This document shows, piece by piece, positions 1 through 64,000 of a stretch of 64,000 bases of DNA. The stretch lies in NCBI GenBank assembly GCA_014435945.1, contig GCA_014435945.1_4088.1; one strand, written 5' to 3'. Numbering within the stretch: the first letter of the stretch is position 1; each line of letters starts with the position of its first letter. The position numbers and the translations under genes were made by a program. The notes under the pieces are model-generated. The model made no database searches. It worked only from the letters and a program-made list of their open reading frames with translations, and was not told the DNA's origin. Source of the DNA: a phage.

Positions 1-162
1 GCCACTGGCTTTAAACGCATCGATGCTGATGTAGTATACGCTAAGATGAATAAGCTGGTAGACAAGATTAACGCGAAAGGTACTATCGATTTACAGTACT
101 GGACCGAAACCGATCCAGAATATGGATCTCACCGCTACCTGAATCCAGGTATTAAAATGTAA
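1..162 (+). CDS. hypothetical protein, C-terminal fragment (gene starts upstream of window)
   Basis: Frame 1 open from window edge to TAA at 160-162; promoter follows. Confidence 0.4.
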   Translation, partial: ATGFKRIDADVVYAKMNKLVDKINAKGTIDLQYWTETDPEYGSHRYLNPGIKM

Positions 163-169
163 AAAGTAC

Positions 170-197
170 TTGCATAGTACTTAGATTCATGTATAAT
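170..197 (+). promoter_or_regulatory. sigma70-like promoter
   Basis: TTGCAT 170-175, 16-nt spacer, TG-extended TATAAT 192-197; AGTACT copies flank the -35. Confidence 0.5.
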
Positions 198-251
198 GTT
201 TTACATAGAGAGGGGGAAATGGTTCTCCCTCCTAAATTAAGGAGTTTTATC

Positions 252-653
252 ATGACCTTCTCAATCACTTCCTTCGCTGACGTTTTAGTACTGGCTCGGA
301 CTTTTGGTAAAGATGCACTGGAGTACGCTGTAAGTAATGGCACTATCCAACCGGAACAGTGCCGCATCATTGGAAACTGCAAACGTTGGGCGGTATCCAA
401 TACTATTGCACTGGAAAACTTCAACGATGGCAACAATGAATATTCTGTTGATGTAGTATTCGAAGCCGTAGACCTGGGCGGTATCTATAACACTAACCTG
501 AATGATGTGCGTATCGTTCGCACTGGCTTCGGTGCTTATGATGTATCTATCCGTGAAGCTATGGACAAGGGATACATTAGCAAGGACTTACTTGCTCACA
601 TCATGCAGCTATGGACGGAACGTAACGAAGCACGTACTATCTTAGGGCTGTAA
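252..653 (+). CDS. hypothetical protein (134 aa)
   Basis: ORF-track ORF 189..653 trimmed to ATG 252 preceded by AAGGAG RBS. Confidence 0.65.
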   Translation: MTFSITSFADVLVLARTFGKDALEYAVSNGTIQPEQCRIIGNCKRWAVSNTIALENFNDGNNEYSVDVVFEAVDLGGIYNTNLNDVRIVRTGFGAYDVSIREAMDKGYISKDLLAHIMQLWTERNEARTILGL

Positions 654-678
654 GCAATACACATCACCAAACATCATA

Positions 679-696
679 GGCCGCTCTCTAGCGGCC
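679..696 (+). terminator. GC-rich hairpin, possible terminator or RNA stability element
   Basis: GGCCGC-CTCTA-GCGGCC perfect stem after stop of 252..653; weak T-tract. Confidence 0.3.
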
Positions 697-721
697 TTAA
701 CTATATCAGGAGTACATACAC

Positions 722-931
722 ATGATCTATACAGTATACAACGTTCTAGGCACTATTGCAGGCGTACATGATAACGTCGATAGTGCTATGCGTACAGTAC
801 TGCAACAGGTTCCACTAAAGCCTAAGACCATTAAGCAGATGACAGCACGACTAACCAGGGCGACGGCTGGCGTGGAAGTATGGCAGGACTATGGGGATAC
901 ACAGATAATCGTAAGCGTAACGAAGGATTAA
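722..931 (+). CDS. hypothetical protein (69 aa)
   Basis: ORF with AGGAG RBS about 10 nt upstream. Confidence 0.6.
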   Translation: MIYTVYNVLGTIAGVHDNVDSAMRTVLQQVPLKPKTIKQMTARLTRATAGVEVWQDYGDTQIIVSVTKD

Positions 932-960
932 TGCGTAAAGGGATCTAGTACTGATTCAGA

Positions 961-1024
961 AAAAAGTCAAGGCGTTTTTAAAATTATGCGTTAAAAAAAT
1001 GCATAGGTAATCCCTTGACTTTTT
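961..1024. repeat. perfect 12-bp inverted repeat with 40-nt spacer
   Basis: AAAAAGTCAAGG 961-972 and its reverse complement CCTTGACTTTTT 1013-1024 in a 250-bp non-coding gap. Confidence 0.5.
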
Positions 1025-1122
1025 TGAAATAAAAGGGATTGGACTATGGCAAAATGCGTAGGGGGCTAAAGGGCGGGTAACCTTAGCGACTTCGATAAAG
1101 GGGTATTACTTATAAAATGTTA

Positions 1123-1150
1123 TTGACTTTTTATATGAATCGTATATTAT
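1123..1150 (+). promoter_or_regulatory. sigma70-like promoter for the small-gene array
   Basis: TTGACT 1123-1128, 16-nt spacer, TATTAT 1145-1150. Confidence 0.45.
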
Positions 1151-1180
1151 TGGATTGATATTATTTTTAATGGAGTCCCT

Positions 1181-1990: not shown

Positions 1991-2199
1991 ATAGCATTAA
2001 CTCAAATCTATATACCGAACGCGTCGCTGCCAGACAACTTGAAATTCTCATAGTATATGAAGAGACTGATGATTTAAACTTAGCATTAGTATTGGAAAAT
2101 GATATACTATTGGGTGCATTCCTCGGCACAGACTATCAGGAGCACTTCTTGAATGAGTATATAATTGCACTCCAGAAATACATTAAGAGCAAACTATGA
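1987..2199 (+). CDS. small protein, tandem paralog family 1
   Basis: motif LGTDYQEHF; C-terminus near-identical to previous gene (IALQKYIKSKL). Confidence 0.65.
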   Translation: MNSINSNLYTERVAARQLEILIVYEETDDLNLALVLENDILLGAFLGTDYQEHFLNEYIIALQKYIKSKL

Positions 2200-2414
2200 A
2201 ACATTTAAGTAATTACGAGAAGAATAAAATTATCGTTGCTGCAATAAACAAATATTTTACACTTCCTCACACAGAAGGTTTATGTGTAAGGGAACACAGG
2301 ATAAACACCACCGATATACGCATGATGGCTGTACTGGGGACGAACTTTCAGGAAGAGTATGTTGTTGCACACATAGTTGCCCTCACTGATTTAATAAGGG
2401 ACAAATGCAAATGA
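2196..2414 (+). CDS. small protein, tandem paralog family 1
   Basis: motif LGTNFQEEY. Confidence 0.65.
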   Translation: MKHLSNYEKNKIIVAAINKYFTLPHTEGLCVREHRINTTDIRMMAVLGTNFQEEYVVAHIVALTDLIRDKCK

Positions 2415-2629
2415 AAGACATAAACACTCAAGAATATCTTAAACGATTAGAACAAGGGAAGAACTTTAGACTTCAAGTTTACGATGATGAATCACTAACA
2501 TCCAATGAAAAGTATGTTATACTAACAGACTCAACATTAATACCATTTGTAGGAACAAACTATCAGGAGGTTATGGTAGACAACCACATCACGGCCTTAA
2601 AATGTCATGTCAGGGATTTAGGTAAATGA
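2405..2629 (+). CDS. small protein, tandem paralog family 1
   Basis: motif VGTNYQEVM. Confidence 0.65.
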   Translation: MQMKDINTQEYLKRLEQGKNFRLQVYDDESLTSNEKYVILTDSTLIPFVGTNYQEVMVDNHITALKCHVRDLGK

Positions 2630-2883
2630 AACACTTAACTGATGATGAATTTGAAACTATAATTCGTAAACTAACCCCCATCACAAGGATAGTCTACGGT
2701 GACCCCAGCCTTACATGGAACCAAATGCGAGCTAAAGTTAATGAGCTATGGTTGCTGTACTTTATGGGGACTCAATATCAAGATAAGTTTTGCACAGAAT
2801 ATATCGAACAATTAACGAATGTTATACAGGATAAACTAGATGATTATTTGCTCACAAAACATGAAGACTTTATCAGGAGTTGA
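2626..2883 (+). CDS. small protein, tandem paralog family 1
   Basis: motif MGTQYQDKF. Confidence 0.65.
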   Translation: MKHLTDDEFETIIRKLTPITRIVYGDPSLTWNQMRAKVNELWLLYFMGTQYQDKFCTEYIEQLTNVIQDKLDDYLLTKHEDFIRS

Positions 2884-3112
2884 GTATCAAACTGCCCTAT
2901 TCTCTTTAATCCATACCCTTAGAAAAAACAATGCCTTACATGGTGCACCTGAAGTGGATGTTATCAACGGTGAACTTTATCTTATGAAATTCATTGGAAC
3001 AAACTATCAAGATCTGTTCATTCAACGATACTTATCAGCATTAAGAAACCAAATCCAATATAAAACCATCAAGGCCAAAAAAGAATGGAATAAACAATGC
3101 GACACAGACTAA
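2861..3112 (+). CDS. small protein, tandem paralog family 1
   Basis: motif IGTNYQDLF; start set to internal ATG (MKTLSGVEY) by family N-terminal pattern; ORF-track start 2840. Confidence 0.55.
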   Translation: MKTLSGVEYQTALFSLIHTLRKNNALHGAPEVDVINGELYLMKFIGTNYQDLFIQRYLSALRNQIQYKTIKAKKEWNKQCDTD

Positions 3113-3348
3113 ATCACAAAATGTATTGTAAACTATTACAGACACTGGCACAGAAACACTATGACACGGTATCTGAAATATTACCCTATGATATCATGCG
3201 TTTACTTCACTGTGAGGCCGAGATGCTTGTACTGATGACAGGCACAGATAAAAAAGCAATTGCCAAATCAATAGATATGTTCATCGAAGCACAATGTCAA
3301 CACATTAGAACCGAGATATGGAGGCGAGAGAATGATAACCCTAAATGA
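3097..3348 (+). CDS. small protein, tandem paralog family 1 (divergent)
   Basis: motif degenerated to MTGTDKKAI; same size and position in array. Confidence 0.55.
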   Translation: MRHRLNHKMYCKLLQTLAQKHYDTVSEILPYDIMRLLHCEAEMLVLMTGTDKKAIAKSIDMFIEAQCQHIRTEIWRRENDNPK

Positions 3349-3547
3349 GTATCAGTATCATTGGAGGTTACAAGCTATAAGAAGGAAAGTTGTTAGTATT
3401 TCTTTAGACAAGTCTATTGCACAAGAGGACAAATGTGTTATAATAGCTGAAATGAAGTTGGGTGCTTTCGTAGGAACAAACTATCAAAACATCTACACTG
3501 ACGTATTGTTAAGTGCCTTACGTAACAAGGTGATATCAAAAGAATGA
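3332..3547 (+). CDS. small protein, tandem paralog family 1
   Basis: motif VGTNYQNIY. Confidence 0.65.
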   Translation: MITLNEYQYHWRLQAIRRKVVSISLDKSIAQEDKCVIIAEMKLGAFVGTNYQNIYTDVLLSALRNKVISKE

Positions 3548-3762
3548 GAAAATTACAAGGCTTTGAATACATCAGACTCCTGAAAACATGTGCCAACAGA
3601 AGAGTAAAGATTCAATCTGATAAGAGCATCCCTGCCAACCTAAAACATGCAATGATAGCTGAACTCTATGCAGGGGCACTCATAGGGACAAACTATCAAC
3701 AAATGTATATAGACATGTGGGTTGATGCATTAGTCAAGGAGATCCAAAGTAAATGCAAATGA
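3544..3762 (+). CDS. small protein, tandem paralog family 1
   Basis: motif IGTNYQQMY. Confidence 0.65.
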   Translation: MRKLQGFEYIRLLKTCANRRVKIQSDKSIPANLKHAMIAELYAGALIGTNYQQMYIDMWVDALVKEIQSKCK

Positions 3763-3971
3763 TTAATTTAAGTAAAGATGAATATTATGATCGTCTTGCA
3801 AAAACTTATCCAGCACGTAACGCCGTTTATAATAGTAACATTATTGAACGCTCAAAGAAGTTGATTGTAGTGAATGAGATTAAGATGCTTTCAGTCTTAG
3901 GAACAAACTATCAAGAGAATGCTGTACTGTTGTTAATTGATGCCCTCCAGAGAGAGATACAAAGTAAATGA
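3753..3971 (+). CDS. small protein, tandem paralog family 1
   Basis: motif LGTNYQENA. Confidence 0.65.
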   Translation: MQMINLSKDEYYDRLAKTYPARNAVYNSNIIERSKKLIVVNEIKMLSVLGTNYQENAVLLLIDALQREIQSK

Positions 3972-4204
3972 TTAATTTATCTTTCCATGAATATCAAAAA
4001 CGTTTAAATGCATCAAGGGATATAAGGATTCAAATCTTCAATAACAAAAAATTGAAACCTGACACCAGAAGAATCAAAATAATAGAAGCAGAGTTATGCA
4101 ACTTCCTGGGGACGAACCATCAGGAAGGTAAGATAAAAAACTATCTTAGAGAACTAATGAATTGTATCGAAAATAAATGCGATGCTTTGGAGAATAAAAA
4201 ATGA
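3968..4204 (+). CDS. small protein, tandem paralog family 1
   Basis: motif LGTNHQEGK. Confidence 0.65.
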   Translation: MINLSFHEYQKRLNASRDIRIQIFNNKKLKPDTRRIKIIEAELCNFLGTNHQEGKIKNYLRELMNCIENKCDALENKK

Positions 4205-4458
4205 TCAATTTAAGTAAAGATGAATATACCGAGCGTATGACAAAAATCTCACCTAAACGTAATGCAATCTATTACAGCCAAGAAATTCCACACAGTAAGA
4301 AGATGATTATGTATCGTGAGTTAAAGATGGGTATGTTCTTAGGAACAAACTATCAAGAACCAGAAGTAAATCGCTTAATAAATGAATTACTCATGGAAAT
4401 CAGAGGTAAGCTGTACTTTCATCAAATGACCCAGCCACTGAGGTGTACTAAGAAATGA
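4201..4458 (+). CDS. small protein, tandem paralog family 1
   Basis: motif LGTNYQEPE. Confidence 0.65.
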   Translation: MINLSKDEYTERMTKISPKRNAIYYSQEIPHSKKMIMYRELKMGMFLGTNYQEPEVNRLINELLMEIRGKLYFHQMTQPLRCTKK

Positions 4459-4670
4459 TCAACATCACATTGCAAGAAAGATTCATCCGAATCAACTATG
4501 CAATTACCAAATTAGATGCTACTATAGACAACCAAAGTTTACCGTTCAAAACAAGAATGATATTAGAGTGCGAAGCCAAGTTAGGTGTACTGTTAGGGAC
4601 GCAACACCAACAACGATATGTGGAAATCTGGATTGATCTTTTAACCCAAAATGCACATGAGAGAATGTAA
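4455..4670 (+). CDS. small protein, tandem paralog family 1
   Basis: motif LGTQHQQRY. Confidence 0.65.
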   Translation: MINITLQERFIRINYAITKLDATIDNQSLPFKTRMILECEAKLGVLLGTQHQQRYVEIWIDLLTQNAHERM

Positions 4671-4901
4671 ATGCAAAAGGAAATGATATACTTAACACAT
4701 GATGAATTTCAAGAGAAGATGTTAAAAGCCAATAACATTACTCTTAAGTTCGTTCCAAATCAATCAATATATGAAATGTCTGCGAATGTATTGTTTCAGA
4801 AGCTACCATACGTTCTTGGAACTGATAAACAAGAATTTATGGTTCAAAATATGATTGAGCATCTTGCAATGAGTATTATGGAAAAAGTAAATGCAAAATG
4901 A
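4671..4901 (+). CDS. small protein, tandem paralog family 1
   Basis: motif LGTDKQEFM preceded by VLFQKLPY. Confidence 0.65.
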   Translation: MQKEMIYLTHDEFQEKMLKANNITLKFVPNQSIYEMSANVLFQKLPYVLGTDKQEFMVQNMIEHLAMSIMEKVNAK

Positions 4902-5133
4902 AATGAAATACTTAACATATAATGAATACGTCGAGAGATTAGTTAGTGCCAAGAGATATGCCAATCAACTTCCTAATGATCCAAACCAAACCCCAGAGGA
5001 AAAGAATGCGGAAGCTCTATTCCAAGCACTACCATACCTTCTTGGAACTGATAGGCAGGAGTATCACGTTGAACGTATAATTAAATCTCTTAAAATCACT
5101 ATTAAGGAAAAAGTAAATGCAAAAGCAAAATGA
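4891..5133 (+). CDS. small protein, tandem paralog family 1
   Basis: motif LGTDRQEYH preceded by ALFQALPY. Confidence 0.65.
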   Translation: MQNEMKYLTYNEYVERLVSAKRYANQLPNDPNQTPEEKNAEALFQALPYLLGTDRQEYHVERIIKSLKITIKEKVNAKAK

Positions 5134-5380
5134 AATGAAATACTTAACAGACGATGAGTTAAAAGAACGATTAATTAAATCCAGAAAACTTACAAATCAA
5201 CTTCCAATCGACACAAACAAGTCACATGCCGAAAGGAGTGCAGAAGTTTTATACATTCAACTCCTGTACTTTCTTGGAACTGACAGACAAGAGTATTACA
5301 TTGAAAGTATGCTTCGATATCTTAAATTCTCTATAAAGGAAAAGGTACATGCTCAAGAATTTAAAAATCCTAACAGTTAA
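5117..5380 (+). CDS. small protein, tandem paralog family 1
   Basis: motif LGTDRQEYY. Confidence 0.65.
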   Translation: MQKQNEMKYLTDDELKERLIKSRKLTNQLPIDTNKSHAERSAEVLYIQLLYFLGTDRQEYYIESMLRYLKFSIKEKVHAQEFKNPNS

Positions 5381-5591
5381 TGAATATCATAAGATTGTAA
5401 TGAAAACTAATAGTGAAATTTCTAAAAAATCAAACCCAAAGTACATACTGGAACACACATTCGAAGAACGTCAATTAGCTCTAGTTGAAGCAAAACTTCT
5501 TGCACTCCTAGGAACAAACTATCAGGAAGAATACATCAGAAAACTAATATACCTTTTAACTAAACACATCAGGAAAAGAAAAAAAGCATGA
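5349..5591 (+). CDS. small protein, tandem paralog family 1
   Basis: motif LGTNYQEEY. Confidence 0.65.
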   Translation: MLKNLKILTVNEYHKIVMKTNSEISKKSNPKYILEHTFEERQLALVEAKLLALLGTNYQEEYIRKLIYLLTKHIRKRKKA

Positions 5592-5818
5592 AACACTTGA
5601 CAGATGATGAACATGGGCTTATAGTAATGGATGTAATCAACATCGAATACAAAAAGTTGATACGCTACCGTTGTTATGAAGATAAGCAACTCGTTCTAGC
5701 AGAACAGAAGTTGTTTCGACTCTTAAACACAAACTTCCAAGCACAATACGAAGAATCGTATTTGTACCTACTGTCGAGGAAAGCAAAAAGAGATTATGAA
5801 AATTTTAAACCACAGTGA
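5588..5818 (+). CDS. small protein, tandem paralog family 1
   Basis: motif LNTNFQAQY. Confidence 0.6.
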   Translation: MKHLTDDEHGLIVMDVINIEYKKLIRYRCYEDKQLVLAEQKLFRLLNTNFQAQYEESYLYLLSRKAKRDYENFKPQ

Positions 5819-6011
5819 ACAAACAGAATTGTTAATCTTTAATACAAGTAAATTCTTAAACATAACATTGTCTGATATAGATGAGGATGAAAAAGAGTTA
5901 CTTAGAGCAGATTTAAGAGTTCTTTTATATGTTGGAACTAACTTCCAAGAGCAATTCGTTGAGGACTACATCGATGAACTTAAAGAATCTGTACTGAGAA
6001 CATGCAAATGA
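5796..6011 (+). CDS. small protein, tandem paralog family 1
   Basis: motif VGTNFQEQF. Confidence 0.65.
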   Translation: MKILNHSEQTELLIFNTSKFLNITLSDIDEDEKELLRADLRVLLYVGTNFQEQFVEDYIDELKESVLRTCK

Positions 6012-7333: not shown

Positions 7334-7661
7334 TATACAACTCAAGGTTTATAAATCATTTGCAAGTACATACATCAAATGCTATACATGTAACTATGTA
7401 ATGGACTACAAAGGTAAGCCATTTACACTTACTTACGATAATACAAGAGGTTTTTATATATCTTTTGCTGATTACAAATATAACATATACGAACACATTG
7501 ACATTGAAGATTTAAGTACTTTATCACCAGAGGAATACTTTCAGGAATCGTTAGTATGGGATTTGGAGTTTCCTATGCCATTAGTACATAAAATGGTAGT
7601 CCAAATGAAAGAAGCTAAACCGGAGTTTAACGGTTATGAAGAATACACAATTGAGTATTAA
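7323..7661 (+). CDS. hypothetical protein, paralog family 2 (acidic-FQ-S motif)
   Basis: motif PEEYFQESLVWD. Confidence 0.65.
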   Translation: MKTNIQLKVYKSFASTYIKCYTCNYVMDYKGKPFTLTYDNTRGFYISFADYKYNIYEHIDIEDLSTLSPEEYFQESLVWDLEFPMPLVHKMVVQMKEAKPEFNGYEEYTIEY

Positions 7662-7877
7662 ATGAAAAGATTATCATACGAAGATTACACCAATCTTATC
7701 AGGACTTTACAACCAGAAATTAAAAGAATTAATTCTCTTCCTATATCTAATGAAGAATGTTCAGTACTGAAAGATGAGTTAATCTTAAAACACACAGTAG
7801 GAACAAACTATCAAGCAGATAGTGTTCGATATTTAATTTGGGGGTTGATGTGTCAAATAAAGTCCAGACAAGCTTGA
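7662..7877 (+). CDS. small protein, tandem paralog family 1
   Basis: motif VGTNYQADS; ATG directly follows upstream TAA. Confidence 0.65.
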   Translation: MKRLSYEDYTNLIRTLQPEIKRINSLPISNEECSVLKDELILKHTVGTNYQADSVRYLIWGLMCQIKSRQA

Positions 7878-7932
7878 CAGTACTCTTCATTACTGCTATA
7901 GTACACTAACGTTAATCATTAGGGTAAAAATT

Positions 7933-8178
7933 ATGTTAAATTTTTTAAATTTCCTTATCGTCTTGTGTATTGTTCTTGGGATTGCACCATTTGTATTGTA
8001 TTTCATGGATTCAGATGAAATGCAGAAGATGAATTGCACAAGGACAGGACAGAGTAGAGAAGAGACGATTCTTATGCCTGTTACGGTTATTGTTAACAAC
8101 ATGCCCATTACAAACATGGTCCCTACCCTAACGACAACGTACCAGTACTCTTGTACAGACGGAGAGAGGTGGAGATAA
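7933..8178 (+). CDS. small membrane protein (one N-terminal TM helix)
   Basis: hydrophobic N-terminus LNFLIVLCIVLGIAPFVLYF. Confidence 0.55.
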   Translation: MLNFLNFLIVLCIVLGIAPFVLYFMDSDEMQKMNCTRTGQSREETILMPVTVIVNNMPITNMVPTLTTTYQYSCTDGERWR

Positions 8179-8501
8179 TGTGTAAGTTCAATTGTATTGT
8201 ACGTAAGAATTCATGTTACATTGTAGTAGCTGATTTTAATACAGGTTCTGGGTTGAAGATATTTGAGTACAGAAAATGCAATAATTCTTTTCATTGGAAA
8301 TTGGGTGCAAGAAAAACAAAAACAATTTCAGTACCGAATTTATGTTCTATCTCTGAAGAAGAAGAGTTTCAGTACTTGTTAGTACATGATGATTCTTTAG
8401 GATTTACATTCGAAGACATGAAGGAAGTACAAAAGCAGATGATTGCACATTGTCATCTTCCAAAGAATTTTGTTCAACGCGTATGTGAATTCTACATATA
8501 A
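8178..8501 (+). CDS. hypothetical protein, paralog family 2
   Basis: motif EEEEFQYLLVHDD; start at ATG overlapping upstream TAA with GGAG RBS (ORF-track start 8151). Confidence 0.6.
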   Translation: MCKFNCIVRKNSCYIVVADFNTGSGLKIFEYRKCNNSFHWKLGARKTKTISVPNLCSISEEEEFQYLLVHDDSLGFTFEDMKEVQKQMIAHCHLPKNFVQRVCEFYI

Positions 8502-8510
8502 GAGAAGAAT

Positions 8511-8822
8511 ATGAAATTTAATATAGCAAAAACATCGAGTATATGTATTTTTGGTTATGCAGAAGAGTTAGGTGATATTGACATTCTTTTGTACAAAAAG
8601 GATGGTGTTATGCATTTCAAGTACCAGGATGAAGAGGCAGACAATTATCTTTTACCTAATTTAGTACAAATGCAGGAAGAGGAATTATTCCAGTACAGCT
8701 TAATATACGACATTGATATTTGCACGATGCCAGTATTAATTAGTATTCAAAAAGTGATGCTCGATATGTATGATAAGCTAATACAAGGTATGTCAGGGAG
8801 GATCATTGAAATTGACATATAA
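8511..8822 (+). CDS. hypothetical protein, paralog family 2
   Basis: motif QEEELFQYSLIYD. Confidence 0.65.
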   Translation: MKFNIAKTSSICIFGYAEELGDIDILLYKKDGVMHFKYQDEEADNYLLPNLVQMQEEELFQYSLIYDIDICTMPVLISIQKVMLDMYDKLIQGMSGRIIEIDI

Positions 8823-8850
8823 GAATATACCTAAAGGAGATGCAATATAA

Positions 8851-9102
8851 ATGTACAAAAAAATAAACCGTTATTTGTATGCATCAAAGTACAGGGATTT
8901 TTGTTTACGAGGGGGAGAGGAAGATTTTGCTCTGAGGTTATCGGAATTTAATATGTTATTTTATCTTGGGTCAAAAGAACAAGAAGATACAGTACAGAAA
9001 TTTCTCAATCATCTTGTACAAAAAATTAATATGCAAATTTTGATGCTTAAGTTACAGGATGAGATAAATGAATATGAATCCAGAAATAGTTCAGGATCTT
9101 AA
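8851..9102 (+). CDS. small protein, family-1-like
   Basis: degenerate motif YLGSKEQEDT; AGGAG RBS. Confidence 0.55.
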   Translation: MYKKINRYLYASKYRDFCLRGGEEDFALRLSEFNMLFYLGSKEQEDTVQKFLNHLVQKINMQILMLKLQDEINEYESRNSSGS

Positions 9103-9457
9103 AAAAGTAATATTTCTTTTGAATACAAGAAGCTCTTTATATAAGGAATTCAAAGATAATGATGGTTCTTTTAAACCATTATGTATAGAATTCAATGATT
9201 TAATTACAGATGCATTGTTTGAATTTTCAGAGAAATATCAAGATACCGTGTTTGGTGTTAAGAATGTTATTAGTCCAAGTTCAAGGAAGATAACGTTATC
9301 TCATTTTACATTTGACAATAAAGATTTATTCAGTTATAATCCTAGTACATCTTTATATTTTATTCCTAAAGGAGAAAAGAATAGTCCTATTCATTACGGA
9401 TGGATTATATCTTATACAATAAATGGAACGGAGTATCCTATCAAATGGCACGATTAG
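9068..9457 (+). CDS. hypothetical protein (129 aa)
   Basis: ORF in tight series; overlaps upstream gene by about 35 nt. Confidence 0.55.
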   Translation: MNMNPEIVQDLKKVIFLLNTRSSLYKEFKDNDGSFKPLCIEFNDLITDALFEFSEKYQDTVFGVKNVISPSSRKITLSHFTFDNKDLFSYNPSTSLYFIPKGEKNSPIHYGWIISYTINGTEYPIKWHD

Positions 9458-9597
9458 GGAGTGGAGATTATAATATGAATATATTATTAAGAAATATTAA
9501 TGCAGATTATTGTGTATGGGTTAAGAATCGAGATATGATGTATTATGATTTTTATTTAGATTGTGCCATTAAGCGTTTTTTAAGAGAAGAACATTAA
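9445..9597 (+). CDS. hypothetical small protein
   Basis: ORF-track ORF 9400..9597 trimmed to internal ATG; start uncertain. Confidence 0.4.
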   Translation: MARLGSGDYNMNILLRNINADYCVWVKNRDMMYYDFYLDCAIKRFLREEH

Positions 9598-9779
9598 TGA
9601 AAGACGTTAATACAAAAGCAATAAATGATTTAAATGATTCTTTATTAGTAAGTATCAAGATGTATTACAATATACATTTAAAGGGTGGTATTGATGATTA
9701 CAATTATTATCTTTCATTAGTTACAATAGAACATTTAAATTATATAGATCATTTATTACATCCAAATCCACCAATTTAA
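9597..9779 (+). CDS. hypothetical small protein (60 aa)
   Basis: ATG overlaps upstream TAA. Confidence 0.5.
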   Translation: MKDVNTKAINDLNDSLLVSIKMYYNIHLKGGIDDYNYYLSLVTIEHLNYIDHLLHPNPPI

Positions 9780-9790
9780 GGAATACCAAT

Positions 9791-10120
9791 ATGAATAAAA
9801 TTATTTTAGCTCTAACATTTATTTTATCAATGTTCTCTAATACAGTACAGGCCGCTGATTATGAAGTATATCAATTTGATTGCAGATTACAAAACAATGA
9901 TAAAATTGATATATTTTTACATAGCACAGAAATTCCGTATTTGCAAATTGAGTCCACAAAGTACATTTATTTTGGTGAGAATTCAGTACAGGAATTTTTA
10001 TTCAAGCACACATCAGAAGATGTAATTGTATCATTACAATACGTTGATGCATCATTATCGTTAATGCATTTCAAGAACGCAAAAGGTTTAGTTACAGTGC
10101 TTAAATGCACAAGGGTATAA
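9791..10120 (+). CDS. predicted secreted protein with signal peptide
   Basis: N-terminus MNKIILALTFILSMFSNTVQA then AD: typical Sec signal with AxA cleavage site. Confidence 0.6.
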   Translation: MNKIILALTFILSMFSNTVQAADYEVYQFDCRLQNNDKIDIFLHSTEIPYLQIESTKYIYFGENSVQEFLFKHTSEDVIVSLQYVDASLSLMHFKNAKGLVTVLKCTRV

Positions 10121-10121
10121 T

Positions 10122-10682
10122 ATGAATGATATTGAGTTATTGGTACATAAGATTTGCACAATATCGTTAGTGCTGAACAATGCGAATACAGTACAGAGTT
10201 CCCTTTTAAGAATTAATAAAGTTGGGAGTAGTTTATATTTGGAAGTAAAAGCTGGTTTTGCAGGTCAGTACAATGATAAAATCAAAGAAGAAGTTAAGGG
10301 AAGTGAAGATGCTTTCATTGAGGTTTGTGCAACAGTTGGTTCAAATCCAATTTCAGTATCACCGTTAATGCGAAATGAAAATTCAGAATTTAATTCCATT
10401 TTTGAAGGTTATTTGTGGTATAATGCTGGAGATGATTATTTTATATATCAGAATTCCAAAACGGATTACAGTGAAGAAGGTATAAAATTCATTGATCCTT
10501 ACAATGAAGCAGAAGTATTTCAGACATCCCTAATATACAATGCAAATCAAATGAAGTATCTTATGTTGTTTAGTACAATGCATTTGAATCCATTGAAAGA
10601 TAATTTAAAATTTTTCATTCGTTTAGAATTAGTTGATATTGCTTATGATCTTTTAATGCAAGGATACAGTTATGAAGTATAA
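10122..10682 (+). CDS. hypothetical protein, paralog family 2
   Basis: motif EAEVFQTSLIYNA; C-terminus LLMQGYSYEV shared with 10759..11265. Confidence 0.65.
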   Translation: MNDIELLVHKICTISLVLNNANTVQSSLLRINKVGSSLYLEVKAGFAGQYNDKIKEEVKGSEDAFIEVCATVGSNPISVSPLMRNENSEFNSIFEGYLWYNAGDDYFIYQNSKTDYSEEGIKFIDPYNEAEVFQTSLIYNANQMKYLMLFSTMHLNPLKDNLKFFIRLELVDIAYDLLMQGYSYEV

Positions 10683-10752
10683 AATGCTTTATACAAAAGA
10701 TATGATTTATGTTGAATTAGAAGGCAATGACGATGTATCCATCAATAGGTAA
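10672..10752 (+). pseudogene. truncated N-terminal remnant of a family-2 paralog (26 codons)
   Basis: encodes MKYKMLYTKDMIYVELEGNDDVSINR, matching the N-terminus of 11255..11566 (MKYKMLYTLTLIYVELESDSDAW); junction sequence duplicated at 11235-11285. Confidence 0.6.
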
Positions 10753-10758
10753 TAATAT

Positions 10759-11265
10759 ATGAATGAGATAGAATTATTAGCACACAAGATTAGTACAGTA
10801 ATGCTTATGCTCAAGAATAATCATTCTATGCATAAGTACATTTTTATAGGTGATTTACGCATAGAAGATAGATATGATAAATTATCGTTTATGTTTAAAG
10901 ATGAAAGTAATGCAAAAGTTTGTTTTGCAGCATTTGCCCAAGGCAATCCAGAACAAGCATCTCCTGTTATATACGAAAATAGTGAAGGGTATTTGTGGGT
11001 CAACACAAACGATTATTTCTTTTATGTTTTGAAACAAGATGATGAAGTAGAAGCACGAATTGATTTAATTGATATTAGTACAGATTGTAGTGCTGAATTA
11101 TTTCAGAAATCGTTATTATACAGTCCTCGTCAAATACATTATCTAAAGTTATTCAGTTCATTGTACGCGAATCCTTTAATTAAGGGTTTTAAATTTTATA
11201 TCAAAATTCCGCACCTTTCAAACGTTTATGATTTATTAATGCAAGGATATAGTTATGAAGTATAA
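10759..11265 (+). CDS. hypothetical protein, paralog family 2
   Basis: motif SAELFQKSLLYSP; ends LLMQGYSYEV. Confidence 0.65.
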   Translation: MNEIELLAHKISTVMLMLKNNHSMHKYIFIGDLRIEDRYDKLSFMFKDESNAKVCFAAFAQGNPEQASPVIYENSEGYLWVNTNDYFFYVLKQDDEVEARIDLIDISTDCSAELFQKSLLYSPRQIHYLKLFSSLYANPLIKGFKFYIKIPHLSNVYDLLMQGYSYEV

Positions 11266-11566
11266 AATGCTTTATACATTAACATTAATATATGTAGAAT
11301 TAGAATCCGATTCAGATGCATGGAATTTGGTTAAAGAGGTCGATACCAATCAATGGTACATGGCAAATTTAGACGCACAGGTTGTTACGGATTATTTTAT
11401 AGATTTTAATACATTATCTGAAGAAGAATTTTTCCAAATGCAATTGGTGGTTGACATGTACGGGCATGACATGGTAACATTACGAAATATACAGAAAGCC
11501 GTTAATGAAATCCAAAGCAAGAAAGATTATGAGGTAGGAGAGTATTATGAGATCGACGTACAGTGA
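11255..11566 (+). CDS. hypothetical protein, paralog family 2
   Basis: motif SEEEFFQMQLVVD. Confidence 0.65.
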   Translation: MKYKMLYTLTLIYVELESDSDAWNLVKEVDTNQWYMANLDAQVVTDYFIDFNTLSEEEFFQMQLVVDMYGHDMVTLRNIQKAVNEIQSKKDYEVGEYYEIDVQ

Positions 11567-11904
11567 AAGCAATGAGTACAATAGTTATGATATATAAAAT
11601 GCTTTATACAGTATCGGGGATATATGTAGAATTAGAACCCGATTATCCAGATGGATGGAATTTTATTAAACGCTCCGATAGAAATACATGGCAAATGGAA
11701 CATTTGGATAATGACGTAATATTAGACAATTTTGTGGATTTTAATACATTATCAGAAGAAGAATTCTTCCAAATGCAATGTGTGCTTGACACAAAAGGAT
11801 TTGATGTGCTATTATTAAAGAATATACAGAAAGCTGTTAACGAATTAATATCCAATGACGAGTTAGGCAAAGTGAGGCTGTTCCATGATCTCGAAGTACA
11901 ATGA
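11563..11904 (+). CDS. hypothetical protein, paralog family 2
   Basis: motif SEEEFFQMQCVLD; close paralog of previous gene. Confidence 0.65.
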   Translation: MKAMSTIVMIYKMLYTVSGIYVELEPDYPDGWNFIKRSDRNTWQMEHLDNDVILDNFVDFNTLSEEEFFQMQCVLDTKGFDVLLLKNIQKAVNELISNDELGKVRLFHDLEVQ

Positions 11905-12460
11905 AAGCAATGAGTACAATGAAATTCAGTACACCTACGCTAATGCAATCCTTATGGGACAAAAGTTAGCTTGTATTGTTGCAGCCTTATATAATGCACA
12001 GAAAGATTACAAGCGTCACATCCACAAATGTATTGGTATTATTCCATCGAAGTACAATACATATATTGCGTGCACGAGTCATTTTGATAAACGATTCAAT
12101 ACACCTGATACCCCAAATGCCCATAGTGTTATTGGTCTTTTGGATTTTGCCCCTGGTGCTGTTATTGGAAAGAATGATTTAGAGTACGCATGGTATAATA
12201 AAAATGCCCCGTTAGTAATGGTAAAATATGATACAGAAACGAACAAAGCAATAGAGTACAATACATATAAATCAGAGGAAGAATTTTTCCAAGGTTCATT
12301 GCTTGTACCAGTGCGATTGTTATTTTATAATGTCATAATGAGTACAGTACACGATAGTCCATTACACAAGAATCACAAAATTAATTTCAATTTTTGTGCT
12401 TATGCGATTGATGGTGTTTATGAGTGCTTAATGGAGGTATTGAGTTATGAAGCTGAATAA
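11885..12460 (+). CDS. hypothetical protein, paralog family 2
   Basis: motif SEEEFFQGSLLVP. Confidence 0.65.
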   Translation: MISKYNESNEYNEIQYTYANAILMGQKLACIVAALYNAQKDYKRHIHKCIGIIPSKYNTYIACTSHFDKRFNTPDTPNAHSVIGLLDFAPGAVIGKNDLEYAWYNKNAPLVMVKYDTETNKAIEYNTYKSEEEFFQGSLLVPVRLLFYNVIMSTVHDSPLHKNHKINFNFCAYAIDGVYECLMEVLSYEAE

Positions 12461-12788
12461 TACATTTGATATTAAGAAGTTAAGAGAATGGTTTTATAGT
12501 ATTGAAATTGAAGCCATTCCTTATCATAGATATGAACAAAGTGATTTACAAAGTATTGATATCAGAGAGTTGTACAAATATTATCAGAGTGCATTAGAGA
12601 TGCATAAGTTATTTTTGAGTACAAATTTCATCCTAAATTACAATTTTGAGGAATTTAATAATTATAATTTAGTACAGAAATATGTAGTAGCAAAGTACAT
12701 GTACAATCAAGGTATCAAAGGTTGCCTCGAATTCAATACCGTTCTTATTTTAGTTGAGGTAATTTTATGCACCGCATGTCTGATTTAG
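12447..12788 (+). CDS. hypothetical protein
   Basis: ORF in series; only a degenerate motif (NFEEFNNYNLV). Confidence 0.5.
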   Translation: MKLNNTFDIKKLREWFYSIEIEAIPYHRYEQSDLQSIDIRELYKYYQSALEMHKLFLSTNFILNYNFEEFNNYNLVQKYVVAKYMYNQGIKGCLEFNTVLILVEVILCTACLI

Positions 12789-13264
12789 AGTTCAGTTTAG
12801 ATGCAGCCTTTAAATTTGTTCACAAAATAGAAACAATATATCGTACATTATGTGCAATAACATCAGTATCAAAAGAGTTTGATGTTGGTGAAAGGTATCA
12901 GGTGTGGAATAATTCATTTTATAATAAAGAACATTCTGCGACGGCATTTTATATTTTAGCATTTAATCCCAGCAATTGTTACCCAGAGAAGCATGAACGT
13001 TATCCAAATGACGACATGTGGTTTGAGTACAAAGAAGATGCTGATATGTCGTCAATTGTAGTTCCTGATGATTTTAATGCACAAGATTTAACAGAAGAGT
13101 GGTGGTTCCAGCAGAATTTAGTACATGATGATATTGATTTATTTTTCTATATAGTGTTTAAAATGCTTTATCACAACAATATAGTTAAAGAAAGTTTATC
13201 GTTTTCATGTCTATATATTGATGATTTGTACAATGAAATTCAAATAAACATGCCTGTATCGTAA
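12767..13264 (+). CDS. hypothetical protein, paralog family 2
   Basis: motif TEEWWFQQNLVHDD. Confidence 0.65.
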   Translation: MHRMSDLEFSLDAAFKFVHKIETIYRTLCAITSVSKEFDVGERYQVWNNSFYNKEHSATAFYILAFNPSNCYPEKHERYPNDDMWFEYKEDADMSSIVVPDDFNAQDLTEEWWFQQNLVHDDIDLFFYIVFKMLYHNNIVKESLSFSCLYIDDLYNEIQINMPVS

Positions 13265-13280
13265 GATATGGGCTTTTTTT
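13253..13280 (+). terminator. possible rho-independent terminator
   Basis: 8-bp stem with two G-U pairs and GTAA loop around stop codon, followed by CTTTTTTTGTTT. Confidence 0.4.
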
Positions 13281-13282
13281 GT

Positions 13283-13311
13283 TTGACACGAGTACAAATG
13301 CATGGTACAAT
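13283..13311 (+). promoter_or_regulatory. sigma70-like promoter
   Basis: TTGACA 13283-13288, 17-nt spacer, TACAAT 13306-13311. Confidence 0.5.
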
Positions 13312-13337
13312 GTGTAATCATTTTTAAGGAGATACCT

Positions 13338-13886
13338 ATGGAAAATTTTAAAATACCAGATGATTTCAATTCAGTACAAGAGATGGTACACAAGGTTCAT
13401 TACATTTTTAATGAATTAATTATTGCCAATTCATCCAGTATGCAAATTGAGTTAAAGGATATTGATAGAGAAGAAGTTTTTTTGGGTTCCCCAAATTCAA
13501 TCATTCCTTTTTATGGTCAGGACCGTTTATGGTTCATGAGAGATACCCCAATTGACAAATACAAAATACAAAACAAATCAGAGAATGATTTTTCTTATTA
13601 TTATCTTAAAATTTCATTACAAGTACAAGATATTAGTGCAATGGGTGAAATAAGTGCAGAGGATTATTTTCAGTACAGTACATTGCATAGTCCAGAAGAA
13701 ATCTTTGTTGCTATGCTCGTTGCAAAATTGAGCACAGTTGATTTTGGGACATACCCACATAAATCATTCAAGATTATTATTCCTGCATTCGTCGATCTTT
13801 ATGATTTCATTGTGCACAAGAAAGAAAGTACAGTGTACGATATGTATCGTTCAAATTTCAGTATGATTACAGGGGCATTAAAATGA
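13338..13886 (+). CDS. hypothetical protein, paralog family 2
   Basis: motif AEDYFQYSTLHSP; start at ATG with AAGGAG RBS (ORF-track start 13302 lies in promoter). Confidence 0.65.
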   Translation: MENFKIPDDFNSVQEMVHKVHYIFNELIIANSSSMQIELKDIDREEVFLGSPNSIIPFYGQDRLWFMRDTPIDKYKIQNKSENDFSYYYLKISLQVQDISAMGEISAEDYFQYSTLHSPEEIFVAMLVAKLSTVDFGTYPHKSFKIIIPAFVDLYDFIVHKKESTVYDMYRSNFSMITGALK

Positions 13887-14491: not shown

Positions 14492-14492
14492 T

Positions 14493-14687
14493 ATGACCGC
14501 CTATGATATCAAACAAAGGCATACGAAGTTTGATTTGTTCACATACCAATTCCACAATGATATAGTGAATTTTAACATCAATGCGTCATTGCATCCTACA
14601 TCACAAGATGATTTTGACAACAGAGTGCTTAACATAGTGGTGCTTTTGTGTTATAATCATTTCAGTGAATATTTTAACACAAGATAA
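14493..14687 (+). CDS. hypothetical small protein
   Basis: ORF in series; no family motif. Confidence 0.45.
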   Translation: MTAYDIKQRHTKFDLFTYQFHNDIVNFNINASLHPTSQDDFDNRVLNIVVLLCYNHFSEYFNTR

Positions 14688-14700
14688 GGTTGAGGCACAC

Positions 14701-15560: not shown

Positions 15561-15570
15561 GGAAAGTACA

Positions 15571-61487: not shown

Positions 61488-61488
61488 T

Positions 61489-61935
61489 ATGTCTAATGCA
61501 CAATACAAAGAAGGTTCTGCCGCGTTTAAAAACAAAGTAGTTTTTAACAATGAACAGCTAAAATCACAGCACCCACTATTCCGTCAAGGTTATCGTGCTG
61601 CACAAGCTGAAGCTATGAAGAAAAACAACGTAACATTCCCAACAACTCTGTATGATATTCCTAAACGTCCATCAGTGTTTAAAGCAGAATGGACTGACAT
61701 TATGGCAGCAACTAAACGTCCTCGTTTTGCTAAACTTCACACTGATGAAGGTCGCTGGATGTTGATGGGTATTATGAAAGCAGTTGAGAAACAGGCACAT
61801 ACCATCGTTCGTTACAAAGACGTTGTAGCTATGGTTGATAAAGCATTTGATCTTATTCTCCAGTACGGTTATGATGAAGGTGTACTAACTGTATCTGATT
61901 GTGAGCAGTACCAGTACACTCCATTCCAGAAATAA
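61489..61935 (+). CDS. hypothetical protein
   Basis: ORF-track ORF 61435 trimmed to ATG after upstream TAA. Confidence 0.55.
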   Translation: MSNAQYKEGSAAFKNKVVFNNEQLKSQHPLFRQGYRAAQAEAMKKNNVTFPTTLYDIPKRPSVFKAEWTDIMAATKRPRFAKLHTDEGRWMLMGIMKAVEKQAHTIVRYKDVVAMVDKAFDLILQYGYDEGVLTVSDCEQYQYTPFQK

Positions 61936-61942
61936 TTACTTA

Positions 61943-61970
61943 GGGAATCTTTCATGATTCCCATTTTATT
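61943..61970 (+). terminator. rho-independent terminator
   Basis: GGGAATC-TTTCAT-GATTCCC then ATTTTATTT. Confidence 0.6.
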
Positions 61971-62048
61971 TGCTGTATATCAAAAATTATTGATCAAAAA
62001 TTGATCCATACAAGGTAAATACCCAAGGTGTAATTGTTAATAGGGTAG

Positions 62049-62576
62049 GTGGATATGCAGCAATATAAATTATCTGAAGATCAAAGTGATTTATTTTTCA
62101 ATCACATGTTTTTAATTGATGAATTTGCCGAAAGTTTAAATTCAGAGGCAATAGCTATAGTTAAAAAGTGGTATTCTTGCTATAACAAGAACAAAAAATG
62201 GTATTGGTTGAATAGAAATTTAAAATCATTTCTAGGAACAATAACCAGTACTGATAGTATTGAACTAATACATAGTTCCATTGGCTACAGTTACTTAACC
62301 AAGCATAATAATAATACGTCAATAGAGTCTGGCTTCAAAATCAAGCGTCTAATGAAATTGACGGGATTGAGTGCAGAAACTATACAAAACGATACAGAAA
62401 AGTTATGGAAGATTATAGAATTCATGAATAAAAATATGTCATTTATATATAGAAACTACGATATATTCACTGACGTAAGACAATTTTATAATAGTCCATA
62501 TTCACTTGATGAGAAATATTTCAGTCACATGGAATTATGCTCAACTGTGGTTGATGAATGGAATTTAGAGGATTAA
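62049..62576 (+). CDS. hypothetical protein (175 aa)
   Basis: ORF after terminator, GGTGG RBS. Confidence 0.6.
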   Translation: MDMQQYKLSEDQSDLFFNHMFLIDEFAESLNSEAIAIVKKWYSCYNKNKKWYWLNRNLKSFLGTITSTDSIELIHSSIGYSYLTKHNNNTSIESGFKIKRLMKLTGLSAETIQNDTEKLWKIIEFMNKNMSFIYRNYDIFTDVRQFYNSPYSLDEKYFSHMELCSTVVDEWNLED

Positions 62577-62577
62577 C

Positions 62578-63105
62578 ATGAAATACACTGCTCTTAGCCC
62601 AACTGATACTAAAGTATGGTTGAGCAATTTGAACAAAACTATCATTTTGACAAAAAAAGTGATATCAACAGCTAATTCATTAGATGTAAATATCAAGAAG
62701 AATGTTCTTAAATATCATCACCGAAGTAAACTTAGTACTTGGTACTCCAATATTTTTTACGGCTTATATGGGATAGATGATATTATAATTGGTACATCAT
62801 CTGGGTCATGTTTCAGTACTGGCGGGATGTGCTTTATGGATTTGGGTTTTTCATTATCAGATGAAGAAATCGAGTTTAAACAATTCCGTGACAAGTTACT
62901 GGGTTCGGGTGATATCAAGTTCTGTACAGAATTAATGGGAGCATGGGACGTTTATGCAGCGAAACCATTTGACATTGAAGAATCAGATGTGCTAAACTAC
63001 CTTCGTATTCTTAAAATACATTCGAACTGTAAAGCCAAATTACAATCCCTAGGAGTATATGATGAAACACTTGACGTGGTTGAAGATAGCCGAAGTCGTG
63101 GCTGA
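62578..63105 (+). CDS. hypothetical protein (175 aa)
   Basis: ATG 2 nt after upstream stop; 3' end overlaps the deaminase start by about 45 nt. Confidence 0.55.
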   Translation: MKYTALSPTDTKVWLSNLNKTIILTKKVISTANSLDVNIKKNVLKYHHRSKLSTWYSNIFYGLYGIDDIIIGTSSGSCFSTGGMCFMDLGFSLSDEEIEFKQFRDKLLGSGDIKFCTELMGAWDVYAAKPFDIEESDVLNYLRILKIHSNCKAKLQSLGVYDETLDVVEDSRSRG

Positions 63106-63541
63106 AGAGAGTAAATGCATTTCACAGAAAGTTGGTTGTGTTATTGTTAAAAATAACCGAGTATTGAGTACTGGTTATAATGGCACTCCATCTAAACAAC
63201 CTAACTGCTGTGACGCTAATGAGCACTTAGTTAATGGTGGACGTTTCCAAGACTGGGTTAGCGATGACGCAAAGCATGAACACCATGAATGGAGTAATAT
63301 CCATGAAATCCATGCTGAAATGAATGCATTGTTATACAGTTCACCTACCGAACGTCAGGGAGCAACACTTTACACAACGCTGCAACCATGCTATACTTGT
63401 TCTAAGTTGATCGCGGGAAGTGGTATTGCTCGCGTGATTTATCACAAAAGTTATCCTCGCACTCCACCAGAAGCTATTAAAGTACTGGAAGATGCTGGGA
63501 TTATTGTAAATTGCATTTATGATAAGGGGTTGGGACTTTGA
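63059..63541 (+). CDS. cd: dCMP deaminase (T4 Cd-like)
   Basis: zinc-binding HAE (HEIHAEMNAL) and PCxxC (PCYTCSKL) motifs; N-terminus LKIAEVVAEESKC parallels T4 Cd. Confidence 0.85.
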   Translation: MMKHLTWLKIAEVVAEESKCISQKVGCVIVKNNRVLSTGYNGTPSKQPNCCDANEHLVNGGRFQDWVSDDAKHEHHEWSNIHEIHAEMNALLYSSPTERQGATLYTTLQPCYTCSKLIAGSGIARVIYHKSYPRTPPEAIKVLEDAGIIVNCIYDKGLGL

Positions 63542-63798
63542 CTTTCTTGATTTTAGGTATCCCATTTGCAGTTGTGATTCTTGTACTTTTAGTGATGATG
63601 GTATTAAATGATAATACTACTCCACCAGTGATGCGTAATCATGAAGTACGATTTTCAGCACAAAACAACAAGTACTACATAGTAAATTGTTTAACTTGTA
63701 AAGAGTATAAAGTAACTGGTAAATTTGGTTTTACCATTTATTATAAAGACCGTGTTGAAGCTGACATGATTTGTCAGAAACTTAATACGGTAGAATAA
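63538..63798 (+). CDS. small membrane protein (N-terminal TM helix)
   Basis: ATGA overlap; N-terminus MTFLILGIPFAVVILVLLVMMVL. Confidence 0.55.
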   Translation: MTFLILGIPFAVVILVLLVMMVLNDNTTPPVMRNHEVRFSAQNNKYYIVNCLTCKEYKVTGKFGFTIYYKDRVEADMICQKLNTVE

Positions 63799-63830
63799 AA
63801 AAAGGAGCCATAAGGCTCCTTTTTCTTTTG
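63799..63830 (+). terminator. rho-independent terminator
   Basis: AAAAAGGAGCC-ATAA-GGCTCCTTTTT then CTTTTG. Confidence 0.75.
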
Positions 63831-63915
63831 TTAGTACACGATAATTTGAATTTCAGGAAAACTCTTAGAACCAACAACGAGTTCAGTACTACCACGTTAT
63901 TTGTTGACAAAAGCA

Positions 63916-63943
63916 TAGACATTATACATTAGTGTGATATAAT
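63916..63943 (+). promoter_or_regulatory. sigma70-like promoter (TAGACA type)
   Basis: TAGACA 63916-63921, 16-nt spacer, TG-extended TATAAT 63938-63943. Confidence 0.5.
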
Positions 63944-64000
63944 CATTCAAAAGAAGGTAAAAAGGCGGGGCGATTCTGCGAGGGAATGTGTGAAGTGATT

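Follow-up and report, generated by a model that had tools for sequence, protein, structure and literature searches.

Here we analyse a 64,000-nucleotide stretch of phage DNA (GenBank assembly GCA_014435945.1, contig GCA_014435945.1_4088.1; the window) in which the palindrome AGTACT, with its core GTAC, is strongly over-represented. The window is 97% identical to the Escherichia phages WPEC3, Ecwhy_1, fEgEco12 and CMSTMSU and approximately 85% identical to PBECO4, and all of them are members of Asteriusvirus, Rak2-like jumbo myoviruses with genomes of approximately 350–375 kb. The direct terminal repeats of fEgEco12 are 20,993 bp long (PMC13070987) and position 1 of the window corresponds to approximately position 20,685 of that genome, which places the start of the window at the inner end of the left terminal repeat. 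It represents the left 64 kb of the genome and carries early and middle small genes up to the DNA ligase region, all real genes being on the + strand. Genes were called by simple open reading frame heuristics. The fEgEco12 genome was put together in full (unique part, 353.7 kb), other relatives were sampled as pieces of 11–45 kb, and one 50-kb sample of E. coli K-12 served as the reference for density in the host. All that we say about function is inferred from sequence.

The AGTACT palindrome in the window, the genome and the clade

Base composition predicts 21.4 copies of AGTACT in the window and a first-order Markov model 17.2, but 181 are present. This excess of 8.5–10-fold places it far above every other 6-bp palindrome, the next being ATGCAT at 2.4-fold. 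Hand counts made in the initial annotation (six, five, five and four copies in four named stretches) were reproduced exactly; the density of 4–5 per kb given there was too high, as rich kilobases had been sampled and the true mean is 2.8 per kb, but the over-representation itself is confirmed, and the signal proved stronger than first described. GTAC, described as about threefold enriched and mostly flanked by A and T, is present 561 times (2.9-fold), with A before it in 61% of cases and T (47%) or A (40%) after it. The excess reaches beyond the hexamer to CAGTAC (13.4-fold) and GTACTG (9.5-fold), and maximal-order Markov z-scores put its main part on GTAC (z = 10.8), with added weight from the adjacent A/T and then from C/G one step further out. 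The initial annotation had overlooked that the motif is really an 8-mer, CAGTACTG, for which 0.6 copies are expected in the window, that its density is uneven and that a gap in it is caused by a separate ban on ACT. The most frequent 8-mers and 10-mers of the window are fragments of TTCAGTACTGAA. The two longer palindromes are located as follows.

94, 795, 7762, 18460, 22232, 35028, 47396, 58346 and 62814, among others: the 8-bp palindrome CAGTACTG, 36 copies in the window
7761, 22231, 22990, 35027, 47395, 49081, 52860, 58345 and 61462: the 10-bp palindrome TCAGTACTGA, nine copies in the window

Two stretches of the window, at about 2–6 kb and 10–16 kb, are free of AGTACT. The first (2000–6000; g057–g084 of fEgEco12) holds approximately 28 overlapping tiny genes in tandem, of approximately 70–85 amino acids each; unlike in the rest of the genome, GTAC is unusually scarce there (12 copies in 4 kb, nine of them TGTACT) and AGTACT does not occur.

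The initial annotation took the signal to lie in the DNA and not in a peptide motif, and had allowed that codon and dipeptide usage might explain the frequency. GTAC falls into the three reading frames of the window 165, 182 and 188 times, with 26 further copies outside the called open reading frames, and its density between genes matches that within them, as AGTACT is at least as dense in intergenic as in coding DNA. We compared the 168 copies of AGTACT in coding sequence with three kinds of shuffle, 200 of each. Synonymous shuffling within genes left 46 ± 6 copies (z = 20), global synonymous resampling 39 ± 6 and shuffling of codon order 23 ± 4 (z = 35); for CAGTACTG the respective values were 3.5, 2.5 and 0.9, against 36 observed. 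None of the 200 shuffles of any kind reached the observed values, and codon and dipeptide usage do not account for the word.

The choice of codons across the whole fEgEco12 genome tells the same way. Ser-Thr is written AGT-ACT in 414 of 790 cases (121 expected) and Val-Leu is written GTA-CTN in 392 of 776 (152 expected), and Tyr takes the codon TAC in 81% of xAG-Tyr-Txx contexts, against 34% elsewhere. The dipeptides S-T, V-L and Q-Y are themselves 1.3–1.5-fold over-represented, whereas in reversed order they stand at approximately 1.0 (1.48 for S-T against 0.97 for T-S). Synonymous choice thus depends on the neighbouring codon and goes the way that builds AGTACT, and even protein sequence is bent. 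In a 106-kb region in which all genes are on the + strand, the half-words are equally common on both strands (CAGTAC 196 and GTACTG 188; TCAGTAC 86 against 83; TTCAGTAC 48 and GTACTGAA 48). This symmetry, in genes that share one orientation, excludes a signal in mRNA or codons and fits a palindromic site in duplex DNA.

The unique 353.7 kb of fEgEco12 contain 2,666 copies of GTAC (2.3-fold), 977 of AGTACT (8.2-fold), 221 of CAGTACTG (58-fold) and 55 of TCAGTACTGA (141-fold). AGTACT is densest in the terminal repeat (64–75 per 10 kb), followed by the early regions (20–40) and the replication and structural modules (13–30), and regions transcribed from the − strand carry the density of these modules as well. 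Outside the terminal repeat the word is evenly distributed, at 2.5 per kb in coding and 3.2 per kb in intergenic DNA. We looked there for a preference for gene starts or gene ends and for periodic or clustered spacing and found neither, the sole regular spacing being a 22-bp pair within one class of promoter, which argues against a signal for helical phasing or compaction.

The signal is common to every relative examined. AGTACT, together with its C/G flank, is enriched 5–13-fold in relatives whose ligase is 63–67% identical. The same holds for a Klebsiella phage from a different genus and for relatives whose methyltransferase is 47–58% identical, one of which is annotated as infecting Xanthomonas. 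By contrast, AGTACT is depleted in the control phages: 0.1-fold in a T4-like phage, zero against 12 expected in a Kuttervirus and 0.6-fold in an Aeromonas T4-like phage. The E. coli sample contains 0.06 copies per kb, against 2.8 per kb in the phage, where the word is therefore approximately 45 times denser.

The sites are also conserved. In an alignment of the window with PBECO4 (56.7 kb, 85.5% identity), 114 of 154 aligned sites (74%) are intact in both phages, against 48.6% of all 6-mers, 46.6% of composition-matched 6-mers and 42% of TGTACA; turnover amounts to 40 sites found only in the window and 48 found only in PBECO4. The positive selection proposed in the initial annotation is borne out in that the sites are under positive or purifying selection. 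With strand symmetry, context-dependent codons, occurrence in all frames and between genes, site conservation and persistence across the clade all pointing the same way, AGTACT is a palindromic duplex-DNA word under long-term selection.

Placement of the word in early promoters

Most of the small early genes in the terminal repeat have a sigma-70-type promoter to themselves, and the word occupies fixed places in these promoters. One such promoter lies in the window, and a pattern search found a related arrangement further downstream.

165 to 197, + strand: early sigma-70-type promoter at the end of the terminal repeat, made up of AGTACT (165–170), TGCAT, AGTACT (176–181) and, further on, TATAAT (192–197)
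19414 to 19428, + strand: AGTACTG directly upstream of a −10-like hexamer, outside the terminal repeat (AGTACTGTGTACAAT; pattern search)

The −35-like hexamer TTGCAT (170–175) lies 16 nucleotides upstream of TATAAT. As the initial annotation had noticed, two copies of AGTACT flank it: the first runs into the −35 box, and the second follows this box without a gap, in the spacer. Approximately 30 early promoters in the fEgEco12 terminal repeat share this architecture. In them AGTACT takes one of two places, either joined to the −35 box on its upstream side, as AAAAAGTACTTGCAA or AGTACTATTGACA (AGTACT-TGCAA), or immediately upstream of the −10 box, as AGTACTGTATAAT (AGTACTG-TATAAT), and often both are filled. 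A protein bound at both places would overlap both sigma contacts. Within the terminal repeat, intergenic AGTACT reaches 10.8 per kb. Only in the early promoters of this repeat does the word keep a set position with respect to the −35 and −10 hexamers, and promoters make up a small minority of all sites. Outside the repeat most sites lie within genes; the pattern search also returned there AGTACTG before −10-like hexamers at 21029, 24837 and 63167.

The leaders of the early genes have a conserved feature of their own, a GC-rich hairpin downstream of the −10 box and upstream of the ribosome-binding site, with GGGGAGAAatgaTTCTCCCC as one example. It lies at about 205–235 in the window (GAGAGGGGGAAATGGTTCTCCCTCC) and recurs after most early promoters in fEgEco12 1–21000.

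An ACT-free gene block and a GCGC void

The second AGTACT-free stretch of the window falls within a block from which the trinucleotide ACT is missing altogether.

8375 to 16991, + strand: block of approximately 20 small genes without ACT on the coding strand (0 against 147 expected)

The complement AGT is present at a normal level in the block (214 copies). The genes are contiguous (g091–g110 in fEgEco12) and have several promoters of their own; Pfam, PHROGs and NCBIfam returned only families of unknown function for them. In fEgEco12 the block is the most extreme k-mer gap of the genome. The ban on ACT is conserved, extending over 8,293 nucleotides in fEgEco12 (29020–37311), 7,620 in PBECO4 (7585–15203) and 7,212 in Salmonella phage SD-15_S21 (7913–15123), lineages that are approximately 80–84% identical in this stretch. 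In the block, 988 aligned positions distinguish the window from PBECO4, and neither has a single ACT there, whereas random substitution would create approximately 49 (minimum of 34 in 300 simulations). UE-S1 keeps the ban less strictly and has 15 ACT in 6.4 kb. At a comparable place on its map, the Klebsiella phage fENko-Kae01 has four genes that form a smaller ACT-poor group, and homology of this group to the block of the window was not detectable.

The AGTACT gap at 10–16 kb exists because ACT is banned in the block. GTAC stays enriched there in the form of AGTACA (50 copies, 13.6 expected) and GTACAG (25 copies, 5.1 expected), and so as CAGTACAG, the nearest word free of ACT. This replacement indicates that two pressures coexist and that the ban wins. 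The block is also largely the source of an apparent asymmetry of the window, which has 131 AGTACA and 40 TGTACT.

One plausible explanation for the block is that its transcripts have been purged of ACU to escape a trinucleotide-specific endoribonuclease. Transcripts without ACA escape the MazF endoribonuclease, and T7 has its EcoP15I sites in one orientation. Like these cases, the block shows complete, strand-specific avoidance of a short word over whole genes, but it differs from them in comprising 20 contiguous genes. The phage also encodes an RNA ligase and a polynucleotide kinase, enzymes that in T4 repair tRNA cut by a nuclease. We found no ACU-specific RNase in the literature. ChpBK, which has the specificity ACY, is a misfit, since ACA and ACG are abundant in the block. 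MazF-SEA, which cuts UACG and UACU (PMC10864209), is a misfit as well, since TACG is present. It is also plausible that ACT is the minimal word of a primase, which would make the + strand of the block unprimable.

A second absence concerns the whole genome. GCGC does not occur in the window (approximately 30–49 expected), in the 353.7 kb of fEgEco12 (354 expected) or in any relative examined, and it is found 6.8 times per kb in the E. coli sample. In addition, 32 GC-rich 6-bp palindromes have no copy in the window, and GATC, GGCC, CCGG, CGCG and CTAG are at 0.36–0.55-fold genome-wide in fEgEco12. The view in the initial annotation that phages usually deplete palindromes thus agrees with most other palindromes here and with AGTACT in the T4-like and Kuttervirus controls. 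Avoidance of restriction sites, in which a palindrome is under-represented, holds for GCGC and the 32 GC-rich palindromes, whereas AGTACT behaves in the opposite way. The GCGC void suggests immunity to a GCGC-directed nuclease, possibly one of the phage's own.

Chi (GCTGGTGG) is an enriched word as well. Each 21-kb terminal repeat of fEgEco12 (1–20993) has ten copies, all on the + strand, and two in the opposite orientation; the window has copies at 48288 and 60480 (+) and 39637 (−), and the first 45 kb of fENko-Kae01 have 13. This cluster looks like protection of the genome end against RecBCD.

In the literature searched on PBECO4, 121Q, RaK2, CBB, phAPEC6, Sharanji and fEgEco12, we found neither the motif nor the GCGC void nor the ACT-free block described.

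Candidate readers of the word

The most likely reader of CAGTACTG, which we propose tentatively and with somewhat less than even confidence, would be a conserved DNA-binding protein that is dimeric, in keeping with the dyad symmetry of the word, and encoded by the phage. CAGTACTG, with its core AGTACT and minimal core GTAC, would serve as a dispersed recognition word in double-stranded DNA, kept at high density by selection across the Rak2-like clade. The approximately 45-fold higher density of sites on phage than on host DNA would concentrate the protein on phage DNA, as a sequence-based mark of self. Because the word abuts the −35 and −10 hexamers of early promoters in the terminal repeat, such a protein would also be well positioned to act as a switch of early transcription; in the simplest case it would occlude the sigma-70 contacts and shut these promoters off. 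That the reader is a dimer, that the phage encodes it and how it acts are our best guess from the pattern of sites.

There is a known precedent for such shut-off. TF1 of the Bacillus phage SPO1 is a phage protein that binds phage DNA selectively and shuts off early promoters, and it recognises DNA containing hydroxymethyluracil. Discrimination by the protein proposed here would differ in depending on sequence alone, given that fEgEco12 DNA was cut by all ten restriction enzymes tried (PMC13070987).

Over-represented functional words are as such a known kind. Chi, KOPS, the DNA uptake sequence (DUS) of Neisseria and the uptake signal sequence (USS) of Haemophilus resemble AGTACT in being short, far above chance in frequency and scattered, in every frame, over coding and non-coding DNA; they are kept because a protein machine reads them. 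These words are asymmetric and biased in orientation, whereas AGTACT is a perfect palindrome that shares their excess in frequency but has no orientation or strand bias. We found no described case of a strand-symmetric palindrome enriched 8–58-fold across a phage clade.

Several points weigh against a phage DNA-binding protein. Our sequence analysis tied no candidate protein to the motif. The C-left and G-right flanks occur together 221 times, against approximately 203 expected from independence, and so give no sign of cooperative reading by a dimer. The copies in promoters may partly reflect common descent of duplicated early promoters. Approximately a thousand sites far exceed what a regulator needs, and the function as a mark of self is a conjecture. 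Moreover, a modifying enzyme or a replication enzyme fits the same data equally well.

The modifying enzyme could be the DNA methyltransferase that the initial annotation had noticed in the window and that we can now assign to a family.

40387 to 40911, + strand: Dam-family (PF05869) N6-adenine DNA methyltransferase of 174 amino acids (Pfam E = 2.5e-32), a candidate modifier of the A in GTAC
39774 to 40370, + strand: conserved protein of approximately 175–198 amino acids, directly upstream of the methyltransferase in all clade members (synteny, alignment)

It is possible, though doubtful, that the word is the target of this enzyme, as GTm6AC or AGTm6ACT for example, and that the marks themselves are useful. 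Proposed uses are a mark of self, protection, strand discrimination after replication and a methylation switch on early promoters. Orthologues of the methyltransferase occur throughout the clade, on contigs of approximately 350 kb, and the gene is kept with its syntenic upstream neighbour in every enriched member; no solved or characterised close relative was found. The motif offers a symmetric A on each strand, and the depletion of GTAC and AGTACT in other enterobacterial myoviruses fits a restriction pressure that a methylating phage escapes. Protection alone, however, predicts an observed/expected ratio of approximately 1, not 8–58, and co-occurrence is confounded by phylogeny: every homologue of at least 47% identity falls within the same clade, which leaves co-occurrence outside the clade uninformative. 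The upstream protein has no Pfam match and only ten homologues, and could be a partner of the methyltransferase; its repeated Y-x-N-G-x-x-x-G-E-Y motifs resemble, by eye, MORN/YwqK repeats.

The closest parallel to methylation of the word is the GATC/Dam/SeqA/MutH system, which likewise combines, in one genome, a Dam-family methyltransferase with an adenine-containing palindrome of 4 bp, and in which the density of sites matters for function. GATC in E. coli is near or modestly above chance, with an observed/expected ratio of 1.23 in the 50-kb sample, whereas in the phage GATC is at 0.5-fold and GTAC and AGTACT are at 2.3–8-fold.

The RsaI/ScaI-type word and a methyltransferase thus occur in one genome, with the PF05869 enzyme in the window and a C5-cytosine enzyme elsewhere. 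The latter has 286 amino acids in fEgEco12 (29943–30803 of the examined piece, outside the window) and matches the catalytic domain of mammalian DNMT3A/3B from end to end (E = 1e-23), better than HhaI or HaeIII. SmaI and NruI are sensitive to CpG methylation. RaK2 has been reported with methylated CpG (PMC3622015), yet both enzymes cut fEgEco12 DNA as predicted (PMC13070987). All ten enzymes tried cut fEgEco12 virion DNA as predicted, and none of them reads GTAC; global hypermodification of the DNA is therefore unlikely (PMC13070987).

The replication enzyme would be a T4-type phage primase, with 5′-(C)AGTACT-3′ as its preferred start site, ACT as the minimal trinucleotide and a cryptic 3′ T. 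Being a palindrome, the word would then let the primase start on either strand, and priming of the + strand would be impossible throughout the ACT-free block. For comparison, T4 gp61 recognises GTT or GCT, and the T7 primase recognises GTC within GGGTC or TGGTC. Although we regard this explanation as unlikely, it is the sole model that links both anomalies: ACT, the trinucleotide missing from one strand over 8.6 kb, is also the 3′ end of the enriched 7-mer CAGTACT. Moreover, with CAGTACAG in the block the + strand is rid of ACT and the − strand still reads CTGTACT, an almost perfect site, and the phage has its own primase and helicase. However, the primase has no Pfam match and its assignment to a family rests on annotation; known primases use short words that need no enrichment; there is no known reason why priming on one strand should be lethal; and the fixed placement in early promoters is not accounted for.

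It is quite improbable that the excess is a neutral by-product of mutation or repair bias, with no selection for function, of the kind known from very-short-patch repair, which enriches CCWGG in E. coli. Such a bias would agree with an enrichment that is genome-wide, affects all frames and the DNA between genes and is graded outward from the GTAC core. Conversion, however, should have depleted a pool of precursors, and 16 of the 18 one-mismatch variants of AGTACT have observed/expected ratios of 1.1–2.4, with only AGGACT and AGTCCT low (0.46–0.50). In addition, the 58–141-fold excess of the 8–10-mers is far beyond known repair biases, the word has fixed places in promoters, and the fEgEco12 annotation contains no Vsr-like gene.

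A host protein such as the nucleoid-occlusion factor SlmA is a highly improbable reader. Its sites in E. coli (GTGAGTACTCAC) are palindromes of 12 bp, against 8–12 bp here, and are read by a dimeric helix-turn-helix protein; the central six bases of the consensus are the same AGTACT (PMC3020112). The flanks, however, disagree at required positions. The SlmA half-site needs G1, T2, a purine at position 3, A4 and G5 (PMC3020112), and the phage word has C at position 3 (2.6-fold) and is depleted of G there (0.5-fold), the pair GAGTACTC being the rarest of all flank pairs (6 of 977). E. coli has only tens of SlmA sites, against 977 copies of AGTACT in fEgEco12, and the enrichment persists in phages of Klebsiella and, reportedly, Xanthomonas.

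Finally, there is practically no chance that codon usage, dipeptide content or families of paralogous genes produce the excess artefactually: synonymous shuffles do retain more AGTACT than codon-order shuffles (46 against 23), which indicates some contribution of the amino acids, and the region has many small paralogous genes, but the three kinds of shuffle, the equality of frames, the intergenic density and the symmetry of strands refute it, and the enrichment is present in the replication and structural modules too.

These phages appear to carry no global hypermodification of their DNA. It is conceivable, albeit rather doubtful, that they instead tell their own DNA from that of the host by sequence vocabulary alone, with CAGTACTG as a positive mark and the absence of GCGC as a negative one. 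The positive mark would be read by a phage protein that recruits or protects, and the absence of GCGC would spare the phage from a GCGC-directed nuclease to which the DNA of the host and of competing phages falls victim. If true, such vocabulary-based recognition of self would be a sequence-only counterpart of the modified-cytosine strategy of T4.

For practical purposes, the AGTACT word provides a signature for finding members of the clade in metagenomes, and the abundance of ScaI and RsaI sites and the absence of HhaI sites call for caution in engineering and restriction mapping. The ACT-free block of 20 genes is a second lead, pointing to a trinucleotide-specific nuclease or a primase in infected cells. 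Above all, a clade of phages of approximately 350 kb has rewritten its synonymous codons, and even the order of its dipeptides, to hold approximately a thousand copies of one palindrome. Together with the purge of GCGC, this enrichment implies a conserved DNA-reading function that constrains hundreds of genes. To find the reader would be to learn how the unmodified DNA of jumbo phages is recognised, regulated or replicated, and the reader could prove to be a new sequence-specific DNA-binding or DNA-modifying activity.

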